The notes under the pieces are model-generated. The model was not told the DNA's origin. It did no database searches and was given only the letters and a program-made list of their open reading frames with translations. 64,000 nucleotides of DNA from an uncultured Solirubrobacterales bacterium. GTDB taxonomy: Bacteria; Actinomycetota; Thermoleophilia; Solirubrobacterales; 70-9. The translations under genes were made by a program, and so were the position numbers. This document shows positions 6,790 to 49,375 of this stretch, piece by piece. The stretch covers positions 48,430-112,429 of the forward strand of contig CAVSQT010000006.1 in the NCBI GenBank assembly GCA_963730145.1, read 5' to 3'. Position 1 is the first letter of the stretch; the number at the start of each line of letters is the position of its first letter.

Positions 6790-7415
6790 TTAGGTCCCGA
6801 CCTCGATGCGGACAACGCGCGATCCCGGCTCGCACCGAGACGCGCCCCGCGGCGATCATCGCGATCGCCTGCGGCAGCAGCGCGTGCTCGGTCGAGTGAA
6901 TCGCCGCTTCGAGCGCTTCGCGATTGCGATCGGGCGGAATCGGCACCGCGCGCTGCAGGATGATCGGACCGGAGTCGATGCCCTCGTCGACGTAGTGGAT
7001 CGTCACGCCGGTGACCGCGACGCCGTGCTCGAGGGCCTGCCCGATCGCGTCGAGCCCGGGGAACGAGGGCAGCAATGCCGGGTGGACGTTGATGATGCGC
7101 AGCGCGAAACGTTCGATGAAGCGGGGCGAGAGCAGCTGCATGTAGCCGGCGAGGACGACGAGGTCGACGGCCATCGTGCTCGAGCCAGTCGGCGATCGCG
7201 AGATCGCGCGTCTCGCGATCCGCGTGCTCGTCGATCGAGAACGCCGCCGTCTCGATGTCCATCGCCGCGGCCCGTTCCAGCGCTCGCGCATCGGGCTTGT
7301 CGGACCCGACCGCGACCACCTCGATCCCGTCGCGACCGTGGAGCTGATCGAGGATCGCCTGAAGGTTGGTGCCGGCGCCGGAGGCGAGAACGGCGACGCG
7401 AAAGGTGTCGCTCAC
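6790..7415 (-). CDS. purN: Phosphoribosylglycinamide formyltransferase, frameshifted
   Basis: [54 protein letters not shown]. The true stop TAA at 6790-6792 is reached only after a late frame change. Confidence 0.85.
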
Positions 7416-7419
7416 GCAC

Positions 7420-8964
7420 TCAAGCCGCGCGGGCGGTCAGGGCCAGCTTGGGGAACTTGCCGCCGGTCGAACGCAGCATGTCGCCGTCGATCAGCGCGTC
7501 GACCTCGCGCAGCAGCTCCTCGGCGCGCCAGTCGTTGAACTCGCCGTAGCCCGGCAGCTCGTCGTAGTCGTACTTGACGATCACCTTGCTGCGCCCGCCG
7601 CGCAGGATCTCGACGGTCCGCGTCCGGCCGACGCTCGGGTTCGCCTCGCGAACGACGGCGAGGATCGCCCGCTCGACGCTGCCTCGGTCCTGAGCACTCC
7701 CGGACGGGCGCTCAGCGGCCCGCGCGGTGCGAGGACGAGCCTGCGCGGCGGCCAGCGGTCCATCGCAGATGTCGCAGCAGCGCGCCACGGGCGTCTCGGG
7801 CTCGGCTCGATCGCCGAAGTGCCTGAGGATCGCCCGGCGCCGGCAGACCCCGCCCTCGACGAACCCCCAGACCTGGCGATACTGGCGCCAGCGATGGTCC
7901 TTTGCCTCCGGGTCGTCGAGCTGGTTGATGAAGAAGACGTGCAGGCCCTTGTCGCGATTCTCGGCCAGCAGCACGCAGCGCGACGGCAGCCCGTCTCGCC
8001 CACCGCGCCCCGCCTCCTGGTAATAGGCCTCCAGCGACGACGGCACCACCTCGTGGATCACGGTCCGCACGTCGGCCTTGTCGACGCCCATGCCGAAGGC
8101 GTTGGTGGCGACGACGACCGGTGTCTCACCGGCCATGAACGCACGCTGGGACTCGGCACGGGCGCTGCGCTCCATGCCCGCGTGGTAGGCCGGGATCTCG
8201 CGGCCGAGCTCGCCAGAGAGCCAGCGCGCCGTCTCGTCGGTCTTCTTGCGCGTCCCGGCGTAGACGATCGCCGGCAGCGCGTCGGCTTCGGAGAGCAGGG
8301 CCAGGGTCGCGGCCTGCTTGGCGCGGGCCGAACCGGTCGCGACGACGTCGTAGGAGAGGTTGGGACGATCGAAGCCGGTCGTGATCCGCAGCGGCTCGCG
8401 CAGTCCGAGGCGGCGGACGATGTCGTTTGCGACCTGCGGCGTCGCCGTCGCCGTCGCCGCGAAGGTGGAATCGGCGCGCAGCGCCCGCGCGACCTGGCCG
8501 AGGCGAAAGTACTCGGGCCGGAAGTCGTGTCCCCATTCGCTCACGCAGTGCGCCTCGTCGACGACGAAGAGGCCGATGTCCGCCGCGGCGAGGCGGTCGA
8601 CGAAGCCCGGCGTCGCGAAGCGCTCCGGGGCCACGTAGAGCATCTTCACCTCGCCGCTCAGCGCAAGCTCGAAGGCGCGCCGGTTGTCGGCCGCGTCGCG
8701 CTGGGCGTTGATCAGGCCGGCGCGCCCGCCGAGGCTCTCGACCTGGTCGGTCATCAGCGAGACCAGCGGCGAGACCACCACCGTGAGCTGGCCGGAGACG
8801 AGCGCAGGGAGCTGGTAGCAGAGCGACTTGCCGGCCCCCGTCGGCATCACCAGCAGCACGTCACGACCGACCACGGCAGCCTCGACGGCCTCCTCTTGGC
8901 CCGGGCGAAAGCCGGCGTGGCCGAAGTGGCGCACGAGCGCCTCGTTGAGATCGAGATCGGTCAT
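7420..8964 (-). CDS. recQ: ATP-dependent DNA helicase RecQ family
   Basis: Intact 514 aa ORF with FRPGQ, MPTGAGKSLCYQLPA, VVDEAHCVSEWGHDFRP, TNAFGMGVDK and QEAGRGGRDG. Confidence 0.9.
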   Translation of the reverse strand: MTDLDLNEALVRHFGHAGFRPGQEEAVEAAVVGRDVLLVMPTGAGKSLCYQLPALVSGQLTVVVSPLVSLMTDQVESLGGRAGLINAQRDAADNRRAFELALSGEVKMLYVAPERFATPGFVDRLAAADIGLFVVDEAHCVSEWGHDFRPEYFRLGQVARALRADSTFAATATATPQVANDIVRRLGLREPLRITTGFDRPNLSYDVVATGSARAKQAATLALLSEADALPAIVYAGTRKKTDETARWLSGELGREIPAYHAGMERSARAESQRAFMAGETPVVVATNAFGMGVDKADVRTVIHEVVPSSLEAYYQEAGRGGRDGLPSRCVLLAENRDKGLHVFFINQLDDPEAKDHRWRQYRQVWGFVEGGVCRRRAILRHFGDRAEPETPVARCCDICDGPLAAAQARPRTARAAERPSGSAQDRGSVERAILAVVREANPSVGRTRTVEILRGGRSKVIVKYDYDELPGYGEFNDWRAEELLREVDALIDGDMLRSTGGKFPKLALTARAA

Positions 8965-41827: not shown

Positions 41828-41904
41828 CGCCGCCAGGATATGTTGCGCCCGCATGGCGGCGATCGAGCCAGGCGTCGTCTCGGTAGAGGTCTGTTCGCCG
41901 CTAC

Positions 41905-42549
41905 GGTGCCCGTATCGCCGAGCCGCGCCCACAAGCGAGAACCGCCGCCGCCTGGAGAGGGCTCGCGCGTGATCGGCTGATCGAGTCACGGCTCACTCCG
42001 AACACGATCTCGATCACCGGGCTGGCGCTGCACGTGCCCGCGGTGATCCTGATCGTCGAGGGCAATTTTGTGCTCGCGGGCCTCGCCTTCATCGTCGGCT
42101 CGGTGATGGACACGCTCGACGGTCGCTACTCGCGCATGTCGGGCAAGGGCACGATGTTCGGGGCGTTCTTGGACTCGACCCTCGACCGGATCGAGGAGGG
42201 CGTGGTGTTGACGGCGATCGCCTACTACTTCGCCGACGGCGGCGATGCGATTCCGGCCGCGGCCTGCGTGCTCACCGTTCTCGGCTCGCTGATGGTCTCC
42301 TACACGCGGGCTCGCGCTGAGGCGCTGGGAGTCGAATGCAAGGTCGGGATTGCCACCCGGCCCGTGCGGGTGGTGATACTTTCAATTGGCCTCGTGTTCG
42401 GCGCCGGCGATCTGATCACCGATGTCGACCTGCTCCCGGCAGCGATCTACACGATGGCCGGCTTGACCGCATTCACGGTCGGACAACGCGTCTGGCACGT
42501 GCGCAACGAGCTCAAGGCGCTGGAGGTCGCAGACGTCTCGGAGCTGTAA
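41905..42549 (+). CDS. CDP-alcohol phosphatidyltransferase, probable phosphatidylinositol-phosphate synthase (5-prime end unresolved)
   Basis: Motif DTLDGRYSRMSGKGTMFGAFLDSTLDR (D-G-x2-[AS]-R...G-x3-D-x3-D). It lies directly upstream of ino1. No in-frame start was found upstream of TPNTISITG, so a frameshift is likely. Confidence 0.7.
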   Translation, partial: GARIAEPRPQARTAAAWRGLARDRLIESRLTPNTISITGLALHVPAVILIVEGNFVLAGLAFIVGSVMDTLDGRYSRMSGKGTMFGAFLDSTLDRIEEGVVLTAIAYYFADGGDAIPAAACVLTVLGSLMVSYTRARAEALGVECKVGIATRPVRVVILSIGLVFGAGDLITDVDLLPAAIYTMAGLTAFTVGQRVWHVRNELKALEVADVSEL

Positions 42550-42606
42550 CCAACGCACAAACAGCGGGTAGTTCGCCTTCCACCCGCCTCCAGGAGGACC
42601 GGCTTC

Positions 42607-43797
42607 ATGACTGACAAGAACGGCCACGCGACGAACGGCGCGAGCTCCAATGGACACCATCCCGACGACGGCAAGGTCCGCGTCGCGATCGTCGGTGTCG
42701 GCAATTGCGCAAACAGCTTCATCCAGGGCGTCGAGTACTACAAGGACGCCGACCCCGACGAGCAGGTCCCCGGCCTCATGCACGTCGACCTCGGCGGCTA
42801 TCACGTCCGCGACATCGAGTTCGTCGCCGCCTTCGACATCGACCAGGAAAAGGTCGGCAAGGACCTCTCCGAGGCGATCTGGTCAGGCCAGAACGACACG
42901 ATCAAGTTCGCCGACGTCGGGCACCTCGGCGTCGAGGTCCATCGCGGCATGACTCATGACGGTCTCGGCAAGTACCTGAAGCAGAAGATCACCAAGGCGC
43001 CCGGGCCGACCGCGGACATCGTCGGCATCCTCAAGCAGACCAAGGCCGACGTTCTCGTCTGCTACCTCCCGGTGGGTTCCGAGGCCGCGACCAAGTGGTA
43101 CGTCGAGCAGGCACTGGAGGCGGGGGTCGGCTTCGTCAACTGCCTGCCGGTGTTCATCGCCCGAGAGGACTACTGGGGCAAGCGCTTCTCCGATGTCGGC
43201 CTGCCGATCATCGGCGACGACATCAAGTCGCAGGTCGGGGCCACGATCGTCCATCGCAATCTGGCCCGCCTCTTCCATGAGCGCGGCGTCGAGCTCCAGC
43301 ACACCTCGCAGCTCAACGTCGGCGGCAACATGGACTTCTTCAACATGCTCGAGCGCGAGCGCCTCGACTCGAAGAAGGTCTCGAAGACCAACGCCGTCAC
43401 CTCGGTGATGGGAACCGAGCTTCCCGCGGACGACGTCCACGTCGGGCCATCCGACTACGTGCCGTGGCTGACCGACCGCAAGTGGGCCCATATCCGGCTC
43501 GAGGGCAAGTCGTTCGGCGACGTGCCGCTGACGGTCGAGCTCAAGCTCGAGGTCTGGGACTCGCCGAATTCGGCCGGCGTCGTGATCGACGCCGTCCGCC
43601 TGATCAAGCTGGCGCTCAACAACGGCGTCGCCGGGCAGCTCGATGGTCCCTCCAGCTACCTGATGAAGTCGCCGCACAGCCAGCGACCCGACGATCAGGC
43701 GCGCGAGCAGACCGAGGAGTTCATCGCCAAGTACGCGCGCAAGGGCGCGGCGAAGGCGGCCAAGAAGCCGGCGCCGAAGAAGATCGCTTCGAGCTGA
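42607..43797 (+). CDS. ino1: myo-inositol-1-phosphate synthase
   Basis: Intact 396 aa ORF with [29 protein letters not shown] and [11 protein letters not shown], plus a Lys/Ala-rich tail. Confidence 0.9.
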
Positions 43798-43850
43798 GCG
43801 CGCTGCGTGCGACCGCTCCGTTGACGGGGCGGGCGGGTTGAACCGATCGA

Positions 43851-43868
43851 GGAGTACCTGCGTACTCC
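43851..43868 (+). terminator. Hairpin GGAGTAC-CTGC-GTACTCC after ino1
   Basis: Perfect 7-bp stem 54 nt after the ino1 stop. It could alternatively be a leader element of the next gene. Confidence 0.3.
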
Positions 43869-43905
43869 TATCGTCGGCAGGAAACAACCAAAGGAGGAAG
43901 GCTCA

Positions 43906-44514
43906 ATGGGCCTGAAGAGACTTCGACCGAGCGGGTCGATGATCGTCGCGATCGTGGCGCTGGTCGCCGCGCTGGCCGGTACCGCCTATGCGGCGGTGAC
44001 CATCACCGACAGCTCGCAGATCAAGGGCCGAGTCGTCGGCGGCAAGGATCTGCAGAAGGACTCTGTCGGCGGTGAGGCGGTCAGGGAGAAGAGCCTGAAG
44101 GGCGTCGATGCAGAGACCCTCGACGGCCAGACCGCCAACGATCTCAAGGCTCGCTGGCTGCTGCTCAACGAGCAGGGTCAGATCGAGGAGCAGTCGGGCG
44201 GCTTCACCGTGCTCGACGCCTATCAGACCAACAACAACGTCTACATCGACACCGGTGAGACGCTCGTCGGCAAGGGCCTGAACGCGACGATCGCGATCCA
44301 GAACCTCGTCAACGTCGACGGCGCCGATGGCGATGCCGAGCCGAACTTCGGCGGCGAAGTCAGCGTCGCGCGCTGCCAGGTCCCGGGCGTGGTCGAGTGC
44401 GCGCCGGCGAACGCGAAGACGATCAACGCGCTCGTCGTCAGCCCCCGCAACAGCGACGGCACGGCGACCGACCCCGGCGCCCGCAAGCGCGTCTACGTGC
44501 AGGTCACCGAGTAA
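43906..44514 (+). CDS. Secreted hypothetical protein
   Basis: An AAAGGAGGAAGG Shine-Dalgarno sequence, a signal peptide ending LAGTAYA, and short degenerate repeats (IKGRVVGGKDL / KDSVGGEAV / LKGVDAETL). Confidence 0.6.
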   Translation: MGLKRLRPSGSMIVAIVALVAALAGTAYAAVTITDSSQIKGRVVGGKDLQKDSVGGEAVREKSLKGVDAETLDGQTANDLKARWLLLNEQGQIEEQSGGFTVLDAYQTNNNVYIDTGETLVGKGLNATIAIQNLVNVDGADGDAEPNFGGEVSVARCQVPGVVECAPANAKTINALVVSPRNSDGTATDPGARKRVYVQVTE

Positions 44515-44545
44515 CACCGCAGCGTCGTCGCGCGTCTCGCTGACC

Positions 44546-44567
44546 GAGGCCCGCTTCGGCGGGCCTC
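44546..44567 (+). terminator. Stem-loop GAGGCCCGC-TTCG-GCGGGCCTC
   Basis: Perfect 9-bp stem with a TTCG tetraloop, 32 nt after the stop at 44514, followed by TGTCGTG. Confidence 0.5.
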
Positions 44568-44628
44568 TGTCGTGCCGACGCCCGCGTCGAGCGGGCGCGT
44601 CTCGCGTCGCGTCTCATATCCTGCGCCG

Positions 44629-46577
44629 ATGGCCACCGAGCAACGGCTCTCGATCGCGCAGGTGACCTCGCACCCGTGGGGCGCCCGTAACGAGGTCAAC
44701 GAGTTCTCCACCCGCGTCGCCTCCGAGCTCGCCGAGCGCGGTCACCGGGTCCTGATCGCAGCACCCTCCGATTCACGCAAGCAGGTGCGCGAGTCGCGAC
44801 GAGCGATCGCCGCCGCGGCCGACAGACCGGAGGCGCTCTTCGAGCGACTGGGACGGCGTCCGCATCAGCGACGGCGGCCCGCCGGTGGTTGCGCTCGGCA
44901 GCGGCATTCCGCGGCCTCGCGGTCCCGGCCCCCGTGCTGCCCCGCTGCCGCTCGACGTCAGCCGTTCGCTCGAAGGGCTGTTCGTGGGCGTCGACTTCGA
45001 CATCGTCCACGTCCACGACCCGTTCTTTCCGAGCGTCGCATCGGCCGCGCTCAGACACTCGCGGCGCTGAACGTCGGCAGCTTCTACGAGCCCACCGAGC
45101 GCATCCTTTCGACGCAGGTCGCGCGCCCCTTGGTCGAGATCTTCCTCGGCCGTCTCGACGCGCGCACCACCAGCTGCGGCACCACGGCCGAGCTGATGGA
45201 GCGTTTCTTCCCCGGCGCCTACGAGCGCCTTACGCCAGGCGCCGACGCGGTGGAGCGACCCTATTGGCCGACCGAGAACACGCACGGCGAGGGTAAGCGG
45301 CCGCTGCGCATCGTTTTCTGTCTCTCCGAGGAGCGGGGCGCGCTGCGGTTGTTCCTTCGCGCGGTGCGCAGGCTGAGTCTCGATGCCGCCTGGGAGGTGG
45401 CGATCTGGGTCCCGGATTCGACCGAGATCCGGATCGCACAAAGGCTTCGCGACCGCGTCCGCGATCGTCGGCGCGCGCGAGAGCACCGCCGAGGCGCTGG
45501 TTGCCGGCGCCGACGCCGTCTGCGCCTGCTCAGGGGGCCCTCAGCTGGCCCCCGGGATCGTCCGAACCGCCCTCGCCAACGCGACGATTCCGGTCGTCTC
45601 GCAGAACGCGCTCTACGCGGAGCTGATCGGCGACGGCGAGCTCGGCCTGATGTTCCCGCTCGGCGACGCGGTGACGCTGGCGGGCCAGCTCGAGCGCCTG
45701 GTGCAGACGCCGGCGCTTCGCCGCGAGCTCCTGAGGCGAGCCGCGTGGTGCCCAGCGCGATTGGCAGTCGGCCGCCGACCAGGTCGAGGAGATCTACGGG
45801 CGAATAGCCGCGCGCCGTCACGATCCGGCCGGCAGTCCCGAGCTACGTCGCCGGATCTCGCGACGTCGCGAGATCAACGTCGACCTGCACATGCACACCG
45901 ACCACTCCTCCGACTGCGCGACACCGGTCGAAACCCTGCTTGCCACGGCAGCCGAGGCCGGGCTCGGCGCGATCGCGATCACCGACCACAACGAGATCTC
46001 CGGAGCTCTGGCGGCGCGAGAAGCCGCCGAGCCATACGGCGTCAAGGTGATCATCGCCGAGGAGGTCAAGACCGCCGAGCAGGGCGAGGTGATCGGCCTC
46101 TTCATCGAGCAGCTCATCCCTCGAGGGATGAGCATGGAGGAGACGATCGCCGAGATCCGGCGCCAGGGCGGCCTCGTTTACGTCCCGCATCCGTTCGATC
46201 GCCTGCACTCGGTGCCCGACTACGAGCATCTGCTCGGCATCGTCGAGGAGATCGACATCATCGAGGTGTTCAATCCGCGGGTGGCGCTGACGGCCTTCAA
46301 CGAGGAGGCCGAGCGGTTCGCCGAGAAGTACCGCATCGTCCCCGGCGCCGGCTCCGACAGCCACGTTGCCCAGGGTCTCGGCAGCGTCATGACCCGTGTT
46401 CACGATTTCGACGGACCCGAGGAGTTCCTCGAGGCGATGCGCAGCGCCGACATCGTTCGCAAGCACAAGAACCTCGTCTACGTGCAGACCCTGAAGTGGC
46501 TTCAGACCGGCGGCGGGCGCGGCGGCAAGCGCGTCAGCGGCGCTCGACGACCACCGGCGCGAAGCAGCAAGGCCTGA
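44629..46577 (+). CDS. PimA-like GT4 glycosyltransferase fused in frame to a C-terminal PHP phosphoesterase domain (frameshifted in the GT part)
   Basis: GT N-terminus LSIAQVTSHPWG...LAERGHRVLIAAPS and GT C-terminus DWQSAADQVEEIYGRI run without a stop or start codon into the PHP motifs DLHMHTDHSSDC, ITDHN, VYVPHPFD and GSDSH. Confidence 0.7.
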
Positions 46578-47266
46578 TGCAAGCCGACGGCGCGGCAGGA
46601 GGGCAGGGCGGCCCGTCAAAGAGTCCGTCCGGCCCGTCCATCGGGCCGAGAGGAACGAGCTTGCCAATCACCGACGACGAGATTCAAGAGAAATACCTCG
46701 AGCGCGCGATCCGCGAGCTGAACCAGCTCACGCACCGCCTTCAGGAGTGCTCTCACTGCCCGCGAGGCAACCTGATGCCGGTCCTGGGCTCGGGCCACCC
46801 GCAGGCGGATGTGATGCTGCTCAAGTACGCGCCGAGCGCAGCGGAGATCGAGGAGGGGGTGGCCTTCTACGGTCGCTCGGGCAACGCGCTGATGAAGAGC
46901 TTCAAGCGGCTGGGAATCGACCCGCTCGCCGTCTACGGGACGCTCTGCGTCAAGTGCCCGGTCGGCGATACCTCGATGGCGGCGGCGGAGTGCGTCGAAC
47001 GCGTGGTCGAGGAGATCGCGATCGTTTCGCCGCGCTGCATCGTCGTCATGGGAGAGCGCGCGCTCGAGACCCTGAACGAGCTCGAGCTGCCGTTGTCGAG
47101 CCCGCTCGAGGATGCGCTCGGCCAGATGCAGAAGCTGACTCCCAGCATCGAGGCGTTGTACGTGCCCGACATCGACGAGTCGCTCGACTCCGAGGATTCC
47201 AAGCGCGAGTTCTGGGGCGCCTTTCGCTCCCTCGGCGAGTGGTACTCGGACCTGCCGCCGTACTAG
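46577..47266 (+). CDS. Uracil-DNA glycosylase superfamily protein (family 4/5-like, divergent motif A)
   Basis: CSHCP...GSGHPQADVMLLKYAPSAAEIEEGVAFYGRSGNAL...LCVKCP. The ATG overlaps the upstream TGA (TGATG). Confidence 0.65.
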   Translation: MQADGAAGGQGGPSKSPSGPSIGPRGTSLPITDDEIQEKYLERAIRELNQLTHRLQECSHCPRGNLMPVLGSGHPQADVMLLKYAPSAAEIEEGVAFYGRSGNALMKSFKRLGIDPLAVYGTLCVKCPVGDTSMAAAECVERVVEEIAIVSPRCIVVMGERALETLNELELPLSSPLEDALGQMQKLTPSIEALYVPDIDESLDSEDSKREFWGAFRSLGEWYSDLPPY

Positions 47267-47270
47267 ATCA

Positions 47271-48050
47271 CTAGGGCGCGGTCGCCTTGGCGAGCGCCGT
47301 CATCGCCTCGGCGCTGGCGCTTGCAAGGCCGCGAACGACGGTGACGTCGAGCGCCTCGTACTTCGCCAGCGCTGCCTGGGCCTGTTCGCGATCGGCCGCG
47401 GCGACTCCCACCGTCCCCTCAGGCTCGCCGAGGCGATCGAAGTGGTTGCGATAGCCATCATGGAGGTCGCGGTAGAACGCCTCTTCCTTCGCCAGCCGCT
47501 CGGCGGCGTCCTCGCCGACCGCAGCGCGAACGTAGCCGAGCACGGGGGGCGTGGCCCTGCCGGCGTCGGCGGCACCCGACTCGACGTGAGCGCGGGCATC
47601 GGCCGCGAATCCGGGGGTCATCCAGTTGAAGAAGACGCCATCGAACTCGGCGCCGGCGAGAGCGCACATCTTCGGGCCCATCGCCGCCAGCACCAGGCGA
47701 ATGTCCGGGAGCGCAGCCCGCAGGTCGCCGACGGCCTCACGCATCGTCGTCAACGGCTTCTTCGAAAAGCCGGCACCGACACCAAGCCAGAGCTTGGAGC
47801 GGTCGAGGCCGAGGCGGTCGACGTGGGCGTTGATGTCGCTGGGGTCATGGCGATCGAGGGCCATCACGGCAACGCCGAGATCGATGTCCGGCGCCCGCTC
47901 GGCGAACACCGCCAGGGTTTCGAGTCCGAGCGCACCGGGATGATCGTTCGACCACAGCGAGCCGTAGCCGAGCTCGGCGCAACGCGCCGCGAGCGGACCG
48001 GCCACCTGCGGGTCGAGCCCGGCGGCGACGCCGAATCCTCGAGCGTTCAT
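47271..48050 (-). CDS. Luciferase-like (LLM class, probably F420-dependent) oxidoreductase
   Basis: 259 aa from MNARGFG. GYGSLWSNDH, LGVAVMAL, FFNWMTP. Confidence 0.7.
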   Translation of the reverse strand: MNARGFGVAAGLDPQVAGPLAARCAELGYGSLWSNDHPGALGLETLAVFAERAPDIDLGVAVMALDRHDPSDINAHVDRLGLDRSKLWLGVGAGFSKKPLTTMREAVGDLRAALPDIRLVLAAMGPKMCALAGAEFDGVFFNWMTPGFAADARAHVESGAADAGRATPPVLGYVRAAVGEDAAERLAKEEAFYRDLHDGYRNHFDRLGEPEGTVGVAAADREQAQAALAKYEALDVTVVRGLASASAEAMTALAKATAP

Positions 48051-49375
48051 CGTTCCAGCACCGCCACGCACTCGACATGCGGGGTCTGCGGGAACATGTC
48101 GACCGGCATCACGCGGCGCAGCGTATAGCCCGCCTCGACGAGCTGGGCGGCATTGGGCGCCAGCGTCGTCGGGTTGCACGAGACGTAGACGATCCGCGGC
48201 GCCTCGCACTCGAGCAGGCGCCGGACGATCTTCTGCGAAAGACCGGCGCGGGGAGGGTCGACGACGACGACGTCCGGCTTGCCGGCCCGCTCGAGCAGCG
48301 GGGCGATGCCCAGGCGCGCGTCGGCGCAGACGAAGCGGGCGTTCTCGATTCCGTTCAAGGCGGCGTTCTGCTCGGCGTCGGCGACCGCATCCTCGATGCT
48401 CTCCAGTCCCCAGACCTCGCCCGCCTGGTCGGCCAGCGCCAGGCCGATCGTGCCGATGCCGCAGAAGAGGTCGAAGACGCGTTCGGCTCCCGTCAGGCCC
48501 GCGGCGTCGGCGACGATCGCATAAAGGCGCTCGGCCATCTCGGTGTTCGTCTGCATGAAGGCGGTGTGGGAGACACGAAAGGCAAGCCCGCAGAGTCGCT
48601 CGGTCAGGTGCTCGGCGCCGAGCACTCCGGTTGGCCCGTCGGTCGCGCCGGCGGATCCCTCGATCACCGTGTGCAAGTCGACCGGCGGTCGCGGGATCTG
48701 CTCGGGCGATGTGACCAAGCGGGTCTGAATCTGCCCCGTGCGCCGGCCTTCGCGAACCACGAGGTTGCGCAGGATGCCGGTCTGAGAACGGCGGTCGTAG
48801 GTGGAGATGCCCTCGTCTCGTGCCCATTGACGGACCGCATTTCGAGCTGCGTTGTTGGCTTCGGATGCCAGCTTGCAATCGTCTACGTCGACCGTCTCGG
48901 ACCAGCTGCCGCGACGGTGAAAGCCGAGCGTCGGATCACCCTCGTGCTCGCCGAAGGAGTACTCGAGCTTGTTGCGATAGCGCCAGGGCTCGATCGCGGC
49001 CTCTATCGGCGCGAAGTCGAAGCCCTCGAGGTGGCCGATGCGCCGCAGGGCATCGGCGGCCTGCTCGGACTTCTCGGCGAGCTGGCGCTCGTAGCTCATC
49101 CCCTGCCAGGGTGCACCCGGACAGGGCTCGCCGTCATGGACACAGGTGTCGGCGATGCGCTCGGAGCTCGCCCGCAGCAGCTCGACCGCCTTGCCCTCGG
49201 CGAAGCTCTTTTTCGTCTTGGTCAGGCGCACCCTGACGCGGTCGCCGGGCAGCGCGCCGCTGACGAAGACGACATAGCCGTTGCTACGGGCGACGCCGCG
49301 GCCACCTTGGGCAAGCGAATCGATCTCGAGTTCGAGCTCGGTCCCGGGACGCGGTTTGGCCGTCGTGGTTTCCAC
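48047..49375 (-). CDS. TRAM-domain RNA (uracil-5-)-methyltransferase, RlmD/RumA-like
   Basis: GTG start at VETTTAK. TRAM LAQGGRGVAR...PGDRV, SAM motif DLFCGIGTIGLALA, VVVDPPRAGL, YVSCNP. Confidence 0.8.
   Translation of the reverse strand: METTTAKPRPGTELELEIDSLAQGGRGVARSNGYVVFVSGALPGDRVRVRLTKTKKSFAEGKAVELLRASSERIADTCVHDGEPCPGAPWQGMSYERQLAEKSEQAADALRRIGHLEGFDFAPIEAAIEPWRYRNKLEYSFGEHEGDPTLGFHRRGSWSETVDVDDCKLASEANNAARNAVRQWARDEGISTYDRRSQTGILRNLVVREGRRTGQIQTRLVTSPEQIPRPPVDLHTVIEGSAGATDGPTGVLGAEHLTERLCGLAFRVSHTAFMQTNTEMAERLYAIVADAAGLTGAERVFDLFCGIGTIGLALADQAGEVWGLESIEDAVADAEQNAALNGIENARFVCADARLGIAPLLERAGKPDVVVVDPPRAGLSQKIVRRLLECEAPRIVYVSCNPTTLAPNAAQLVEAGYTLRRVMPVDMFPQTPHVECVAVLER

Follow-up and report, generated by a model that had tools for sequence, protein, structure and literature searches.

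The question raised by this locus is which enzyme of the Actinobacteria dephosphorylates phosphatidylinositol phosphate (PIP) to phosphatidylinositol (PI), and whether the candidate is a glycosyltransferase-phosphoesterase fusion encoded on contig CAVSQT010000006.1. The DNA examined was a 64-kb stretch of this contig (referred to as the window), within which the study region covers five genes on the + strand at 41.9–47.3 kb. The bacterial and archaeal pathway of PI synthesis was revised in 2010 to proceed via PIP, and its second enzyme has been missing outside Bacteroides since. For mycobacteria, the PIP phosphatase was called unidentified in 2019 (PMC6506517), and the same was said of bacteria and archaea at large in 2022 (PMC9385802). 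In agreement with these statements and with an earlier note on this DNA, which had held that the actinobacterial enzyme was not yet assigned, the literature searched assigned no PIP phosphatase to any actinobacterium or archaeon, gave BT_1525 as the only bacterial assignment, and offered no link between PHP domains and PI.

The region is an inositol-phospholipid operon of a Thermoleophilia (Solirubrobacterales-type) soil actinobacterium, in which a CDP-alcohol transferase resembling PIP synthase (PIPS) is followed by ino1, a small secreted protein, and a PimA-like glycosyltransferase (GT) domain of family GT4 fused to a PHP phosphoesterase. No other phosphoesterase is encoded in this operon, which otherwise resembles the inositol-lipid cluster of Bacteroides. 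The sequence and setting of the PHP domain make it a candidate PIP phosphatase that would remove the inositol 3-phosphate of PIP to give PI, a substrate assignment to which an even chance is given. The features on which this proposal depends are:

41914..42549, + strand: PIP-synthase-like CDP-alcohol phosphatidyltransferase, 211 amino acids (aa) if the ATC at 41914 is the start; the mechanical open reading frame (ORF) begins at GTG 42034
42109..42186, + strand: CDP-alcohol transferase signature D-x2-DG-x2-SR-x8-G-x3-D-x3-D, from the translation (DTLDGRYSR...GAFLDSTLD)
42607..43797, + strand: ino1, myo-inositol-3-phosphate synthase, 396 aa, intact (PF01658, 120 bits; TIGR03450, 543 bits, whole model)
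44629..45815, + strand: PimA-like GT-B (GT4) domain of the fusion, reconstructed across frames 1/2/1/2/0 (PF13439, PF13579)
45816..45869, + strand: Arg-rich interdomain linker RHDPAGSPELRRRISRRREI, from alignments; a short helix between the domains in the AlphaFold (AF2) model
45870..46577, + strand: PHP and PHP_C, then an amphipathic helix (46473–46508) and a disordered polybasic tail, with the stop at 46575–46577

The GT4–PHP fusion is a genuine family and no frame artefact. A search with the reconstructed protein recovered more than 120 full-length fused homologues of 630–690 aa that carry both the GT4 and the PHP/PHP_C Pfam domains, and a scan of one genome per species identified at least 554 loci with a relative of the fusion. 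In 84 of the 88 related loci that were fetched, both domains share a single open frame of 560 codons or more. The 80 best species-representative matches are all metagenome-assembled genomes (MAGs) assigned to Solirubrobacterales, Thermoleophilaceae, Solirubrobacteraceae, Baekduia, Paraconexibacteraceae or similar, many relatives of the fusion gene stem from long-read MAG projects, and more distant members (31–45% identity) include Gaiellaceae and 'Thermoleophilia bacterium'. Members of the family bear automatic names only ('TrpH/glycosyltransferase', 'hypothetical protein'). Apparent stand-alone PHP orthologues (P0204 and relatives) were rejected as a separate architecture and are split or partial gene calls; the short PHP-only proteins come from Gaiellaceae genes that sit at the family's usual place behind ino1, and what precedes them in L087 and L088 is either a GT N-domain called as its own gene or a stretch left without a call.

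The genomic context of the family is equally recurrent. Across the 82 related loci used for context counts, ino1 lies upstream on the same strand in 76 and PIPS in 67, with the misses mostly on short or truncated contigs. The order PIPS, ino1, fusion and family-4 uracil-DNA glycosylase (UDG) also occurs in distant clades of 35–45% identity (L083–L086), where PIPS and ino1 overlap, and the fusion is accompanied by both genes in every lineage sampled, which is the co-occurrence that the earlier note had proposed to look for. The two partner genes themselves were correctly recognized in that note. The CDP-alcohol phosphatidyltransferase is present in frame 1 with its signature (PF01066, 63 bits), and the five top matches in a PDB sequence search are all PIPS (6wm5, E 6e-20; 6h53, E 8e-17), the nearest solved relatives being the enzymes of M. 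kansasii, M. tuberculosis and Renibacterium. The three best NCBIfam models are all enzymes that use inositol phosphate, each scoring under its cutoff: archaetidylinositol phosphate (AIP) synthase at 133.3 bits (cutoff 180), PIPSynth at 125.9 (170) and the BT_1523 type at 102 (350). The ino1 gene is intact, with an end-to-end match to TIGR03450, and is 94% identical to its orthologue at the locus of the closest intact relative (L001, whose fusion protein P0001 is 82% identical at the protein level).

Within the fusion, conservation is concentrated in the PHP domain. The window carries the PHP motifs DLHMHTDHS (45882), ITDHN (45978), PHPFD (46185) and GSDSH (46350), and the domain is matched by PF02811 at 56.1 bits (cutoff 26.4) and PF13263 at 46.5 bits (cutoff 21.3). 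The metal-ligand motifs DLHMH, HSxD, TDHN, EE, PHPFD and GSDxH are complete in the window and invariant in an alignment of 85 fusion-family members, which includes 30 sequences of clade A and 18 of clade B. The invariant columns (D418, H420, H422, D428, D452, H453, E478, H520, D523, D576 and H578) fall almost all in the PHP domain, which indicates that the conserved function is that of the phosphoesterase. The C-terminal amphipathic helix and the polybasic tail that follows it, for which the AF2 model has pLDDT <50, fit a peripheral membrane enzyme in this predicted structure.

The GT domain has a different history. PimA is its only sequence match in the PDB (phmmer; 4n9w and 2gej, E 2e-12), and in the AF2 model of P0001 (pLDDT 88.8, pTM 0.87) Foldseek places PimA at ranks 1–2 with TM-scores of 0.79–0.81, ahead of BshA, PglA and MshA, in keeping with the PimA-like N-terminus originally noticed. 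In PimA, the beta-phosphate of GDP-mannose is bound by G16, R196 and K202, mannose by E274 and ribose by E282; mutagenesis marks Y9, Q18, H118, R196, E199, R201 and E274 as critical; and R201 docked beside inositol O3 (PMC9202250). Clade A (Solirubrobacterales-type, including the window and loci L003–L082) has lost the equivalents of G15, G16, R196, K202, E274 and E282. Positions 15/16 are H/E (position 16 is E in 28 sequences and D in 2), all 30 sequences have C at 196 and G at 202, position 274 is P in 29 of 30, and position 282 is K, A, Q or T. The window itself reads FCLSEERGALR at the donor beta-phosphate site and SGGPQLAPGIVRTALA at the site of the EX7E motif, which it does not match. 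The former donor pocket of clade A is remodelled around conserved GGP..AP..R and EE[RK]G, and with the donor and catalytic residues lost, GDP-mannose binding and catalysis are unlikely.

The acceptor side of clade A presents H at position 9 (F/Y in the other clades; aromatic throughout), N at 18, H118 in 26 of 30 sequences, E199 in all 30 and R or K at 201 in all 30; in the window, position 118 is Y (VGSFYEP). The substitutions are conservative under a mapping in which PimA residues 1–52 were matched only to the residue numbers in PMC9202250. The placement of R201 near inositol O3, the position that is phosphorylated in bacterial PIP, is suggestive without being proof. The GT domain of clade A is thus probably a pseudo-glycosyltransferase whose acceptor side may be preserved. 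Clade B (665–730 aa; P0159, P0295, P0363 and others; L083, L085 and L086) retains small residues at 15/16 and the basic pair, and its 18 sequences have an intact EX7E (GGEW...E; GGE-x7-E). Clade C (Gaiellaceae, ~580 aa; L084, L087 and L088) keeps only the second glutamate of that motif. Judged by these residues, clade B alone has a GT domain that seems fit for catalysis, with the complete catalytic and GDP-mannose-binding set of PimA. The earlier description of a phosphatase fused to the enzyme that consumes PI would therefore probably hold for this sister clade and not for the window's own clade, which is without donor and catalytic residues. The family as a whole, with a GT domain that appears intact in one clade and degenerate in two beside an invariant PHP domain, forms a natural series from enzyme to pseudo-enzyme.

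These components suggest a pathway that would run along the inner membrane face. Ino1 would make inositol-3-phosphate, which the CDP-alcohol transferase would combine with CDP-diacylglycerol to yield PIP. The fusion protein may be held at the cytoplasmic face of the membrane by its PimA-type N-domain, amphipathic helix and polybasic tail, and the PHP domain, as a trinuclear-metal phosphoesterase, would strip the 3-phosphate from PIP to leave PI. In clade B the same polypeptide could then mannosylate PI, making it a bifunctional enzyme from PIP through PI to phosphatidylinositol monomannoside (PIM1). In clade A, the GT domain would probably serve the phosphatase as a docking module for the PI/PIP head group and the membrane. 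The full proposal, in which the PHP domain is the PIP 3-phosphatase of one class, its PimA partner is now, in most lineages, a pseudo-GT that presents PIP or anchors the phosphatase to the membrane, and clade B represents the ancestral bifunctional state, is offered tentatively, at a little short of even odds. Solirubrobacter contains both PI and phosphatidylinositol mannosides (PIM), as detected by thin-layer chromatography (PMC10722151), so a PIP phosphatase is needed in this group. If the GT of clade A is inactive, PIM synthesis there would also call for a separate PimA; no second PimA or GT4 was found in the window or the flanking DNA of the 88 loci, where only the fusion's own GT domain matches PimA.

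The copy of the fusion gene in the window requires a closer reading. The earlier note had described a GT4 enzyme whose C-terminal text continues in the same frame into a complete PHP domain, and this junction is confirmed, with all of the quoted peptides found: in frame 0, DWQSAADQVEEIYGRI (45759–45806) runs into the PHP domain without a stop and without an ATG, GTG or TTG. The body of the GT4 domain, however, is not one ORF, as only the last ~25 GT residues in the window share the frame of the PHP domain. Four single-base insertions or deletions (indels), located by DNA alignment to L001, spread the GT domain over three frames:

~44845, + strand: +1 indel, frame 1 to frame 2
~45063, + strand: -1 indel, frame 2 to frame 1
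~45464, + strand: +1 indel, frame 1 to frame 2
~45743, + strand: +1 indel, frame 2 to frame 0

The frame-corrected fusion product is 646 aa long and colinear with P0001. Relative to L001, the ratio of nonsynonymous to synonymous substitution rates (dN/dS) is 0.20 over the GT portion and 0.08 over the PHP portion, against 0.08–0.25 for the neighbouring genes, values that indicate no long-lasting decay of the fusion gene and rule out long-term pseudogene decay. Programmed frameshifting is also ruled out, since there are four sites and none is conserved in the relatives. Two other genes on the - strand are broken in comparison with L001: dnaJ has an 8-nt deletion at ~37564, in the Gly/Phe (G/F)-rich linker, and an HhH-GPD/EndoIII-like gene has a +1 insertion at ~41649, beside a GATC. 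Such breaks point to sequence-quality problems in the window and favour assembly error, and the four GT indels are more probably assembly errors than the marks of a real pseudogene. Genuine indels, and with them a true pseudogene that lost its function recently in this genome, are considered unlikely, though this reading has points in its favour. Within the GT part, 0.9 kb contains four frame-breaking indels, whereas the remaining ~14 kb of the comparison has two; none of the four has an obvious homopolymer run (alignment windows of ±20 bases, by eye); and the gene is intact in 84 of 88 relatives, which include many long-read MAGs. Against recent inactivation, every frame-corrected segment is open and 76–91% identical to P0001, the dN/dS values are low in both parts, dnaJ and the EndoIII-like gene are likewise frame-broken, and GC content in the region peaks in the indel-bearing stretch (0.708).

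Several observations weigh against the assignment of the PHP domain as a PIP phosphatase. The copy in the window may be dead. All named sources of the family are Thermoleophilia and none was seen elsewhere, though the distribution beyond the class was not determined; mycobacteria must then use another enzyme, and the assignment is probably confined to one actinobacterial class. Accordingly, the earlier suggestion that the fusion supplies the missing actinobacterial PIP phosphatase draws support from the fusion family, the PIPS/ino1 context and the intact PHP site, but is limited by a distribution seen only in Thermoleophilia-type genomes. The UDG, a TRAM-domain methyltransferase and the dnaK region are syntenic across the class too, such that gene order alone is weak-to-moderate evidence of a functional link. 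The closest characterised PHP enzymes use nucleotides or RNA (RNase AM, 3',5'-bisphosphoadenosine (pAp) phosphatase), not lipids. Lastly, 59 of the 82 loci, as well as L084 and L087, have a PAP2_3 gene immediately 5' of PIPS in the same orientation.

The last of these supplies a competing candidate, in which PAP2_3 would be the PIP phosphatase, as PgpB is for phosphatidylglycerophosphate (PGP), leaving the PHP domain another role in inositol-lipid metabolism, for example as a phosphodiesterase of PI/PIM head groups. Beyond its position 5' of PIPS, it matches Pfam PAP2_3 at 144 bits and PAP2 at 29 bits; in L002 the gene lies at 7294–8070. The sole NCBIfam match of this neighbour, a weak one, is nonetheless to a transferase, phosphoinositol-dihydroceramide synthase, and its HYxxD-type motif, read by eye, resembles those of inositol phosphorylceramide (IPC) and sphingomyelin synthases. 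PAP2 active sites usually face outward, which also weighs against this role. The gene is absent near PIPS in L001 and in the clade-B loci L083, L085 and L086, and has no homologue in the 64-kb window, although PIPS, ino1 and the fusion persist in all of them; the window and L001 have lost PAP2_3 from the PIPS locus. A PAP2_3 phosphatase is for these reasons regarded as improbable. The matches of PAP2_3 to phosphoinositol-dihydroceramide synthase and of PIPS to the BT_1523 model align the operon with the Bacteroides cluster, and the former match hints that Thermoleophilia with PAP2_3 may transfer phosphoinositol from PI to another lipid. Also improbable is a PHP domain that acts on a soluble substrate, as an inositol monophosphatase, a phosphatase of pAp or other nucleoside bisphosphates or an RNase AM-like nuclease, with its adjacency to PIPS and ino1 being inherited synteny. 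The equally syntenic UDG and TRAM methyltransferase are consistent with this, as are the nearest solved relatives of the PHP domain by sequence and Foldseek (3e0f, RNase AM 7ug9, Cv1693 2yb1 and TM0559) and weak matches, over the first ~60–95 residues only, to models for nucleoside-bisphosphate phosphatase (NF041577, 39.3 bits) and RNase RNM (NF047791, 33.1 bits). These scores fall far under the equivalog cutoffs of 400 and 375, respectively, and the pAp phosphatase that the earlier note had named as its alternative is correspondingly weak; the best NCBIfam match of the domain is the CehA/McbA metallohydrolase domain, at 78.5 bits against a cutoff of 80. The covalent PimA-type fusion is, moreover, kept in clades down to ~31–35% identity, and removal of the phosphate from inositol-3-phosphate would seem counterproductive where the operon's own transferase needs it.

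A two-step system of the MshA/MshA2 kind, in which the GT domain would glycosylate inositol-3-phosphate and the PHP domain would dephosphorylate the product, would also account for the fusion, since enzymes that unite a GT with the phosphatase of the adjacent step are well known, compatible-solute synthase-phosphatases among them. It is encouraged by the adjoining ino1 and by the presence of MshA and BshA among the Foldseek matches; MshA is itself a GT4 enzyme acting on inositol phosphate, and the cognate phosphatase, MshA2, exists so far in name only (PMC13156731). PimA is, however, the only sequence match and the top structural match of the GT domain, with no MshA at E <= 0.01 and MshA chains at Foldseek ranks 12–21 (TM-scores 0.40–0.67), below PimA. 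PIPS is always in the operon, and clades A and C have lost the donor and catalytic residues of the GT while the PHP domain is invariant, which implies that PHP function is independent of GT catalysis. This makes a two-step inositol-phosphate system very improbable. A PHP domain that dephosphorylates PIP remains the preferred reading.

The start of the transferase gene differs from what the earlier note had given. Position 41905 is not a start codon, and the first canonical start, GTG 42034, lies inside the first transmembrane helix (TM1). Frame 1 is open from 41887 and contains no ATG, GTG or TTG ahead of TM1, and protein conservation begins at ATC 41914–41916, a codon kept in four close relatives. 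The start region (window 41887–42040) was compared with the corresponding positions L001 6817, L002 8085, L003 3215, L015 2874 and L010 5406, the last of which has ATG exactly where the window has ATC. A TAnnGT hexamer occurs 6–8 nt 5' of the PIPS start, as TACGGT in the window and as TAGCGT in many relatives, whose PIPS then begins with ATG or GTG. These sequence patterns suggest that the mRNA is leaderless and that translation begins at a non-canonical ATC. The PIPS product is cut short to 171 or 144 aa by gene callers. A promoter and terminator scan of 41.5–47.5 kb gave no signal above shuffled expectation.

Three further genes lie in or beside the region:

43906..44514, + strand: 202-aa protein with a signal peptide or anchor (N-terminal KRLR, hydrophobic run, AYA|A)
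46661..47266, + strand: family-4 UDG (TIGR00758, NF040953), a conserved neighbour with no evident functional link
48050..49369, - strand: TRAM-domain RNA methyltransferase, downstream of the fusion gene, after the UDG, in nearly all relatives

The small secreted protein reported after ino1 is present as an ORF with a signal-like segment but is not part of the conserved system. It has no Pfam or NCBIfam match, and among the 88 related loci a homologue occurs only in L001 (9279–9890), which identifies the gene as a lineage-specific insertion between ino1 and the fusion, outside the conserved operon. The UDG is downstream of the fusion in 77 of the 82 loci, and it and the TRAM methyltransferase are kept there even at 35% identity, a chromosome region that is unusually stable across the class. 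The ino1 product of the window has a C-terminal tail rich in Lys, Ala and Pro. The called length of Gaiellaceae-type ino1 is 469–490 aa, ~80–100 residues above the 396 aa in the window (L084, 5553–6995; L087, 5769–7178; L088, 5048–6520).

This system is an architectural variant of known enzyme families combined with a specific, testable and still putative functional assignment. The family offers a clonable PIP-phosphatase candidate, the rationale being that it is covalently joined to the enzyme of the following step and shares an operon with the two preceding ones, and the clades with apparently live and dead GT domains constitute a natural experiment. Should the assignment be correct, it would add a third, non-orthologous PIP phosphatase solution besides the PgpA type of Bacteroides, imply that PIP phosphatases, like PGP phosphatases, arose several times, give the PHP superfamily a lipid substrate and provide a clean case of a glycosyltransferase turned non-catalytic module. 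Even then, the mycobacterial PIP phosphatase would not thereby be solved.

Comparison with known systems places these features in context. With PimA (GT4; M. smegmatis, 2GEJ/4N9W) the fusion shares the GT-B fold, the N-terminal V-x-P-aromatic and V-N/Q motifs, the PxP loop, H118 and E199/R201, to which clade B adds the basic pair, the small residues at 15/16 and EX7E. It differs in its low identity (~20–29%), in the G15H, G16E, R196C, K202G and E274P substitutions and variable E282 of the window's clade, and in its C-terminal PHP domain, which is absent from the PimA proteins described. The TrpH/YciV-type PHP enzymes (RNase AM 7UG9/9ETK, Cv1693 2YB1, TM0559 2ANU and B. adolescentis 3E0F) have in common with it the PHP barrel, the full HxH/D/DH/E/H/DxH ligand set and PHP_C. 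Structural similarity to these is appreciable (TM-score 0.67–0.71 on the target), whereas sequence similarity is weak (E ~1e-6, 18–27% identity), and the GT-B fusion, the amphipathic helix, the basic tail and a lipid-synthesis context rather than one of nucleotides or RNA set the present family apart.

In Bacteroides thetaiotaomicron, the PIP phosphatase is BT_1525, of the PgpA family, and is encoded in a cluster with myo-inositol-phosphate synthase (MIPS), PIPS and phosphoinositol-dihydroceramide (PI-DHC) synthase (PMC9246714). The Thermoleophilia operon is alike in encoding MIPS and PIPS, joined in most relatives by a PAP2-type protein, and leaves one phosphoesterase gene for the step from PIP to PI. 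No PgpA match was found among the proteins of the region in Pfam or NCBIfam, and PHP and PgpA have no homology, so that the same function would amount to a non-orthologous displacement. Fusions of a glycosyltransferase to a phosphatase of a consecutive step are known from the synthase/phosphatases of trehalose-6-phosphate, sucrose-phosphate and mannosyl-3-phosphoglycerate, and the present family resembles them in the covalent joining of a GT-B glycosyltransferase to a phosphatase of the neighbouring step. Those fusions employ haloacid dehalogenase (HAD) phosphatases on soluble substrates, with the phosphatase acting after the glycosyltransferase; here the phosphatase is of the PHP type, the proposed substrate is a lipid, dephosphorylation would precede glycosyl transfer, and the glycosyltransferase itself is degenerate in most clades.

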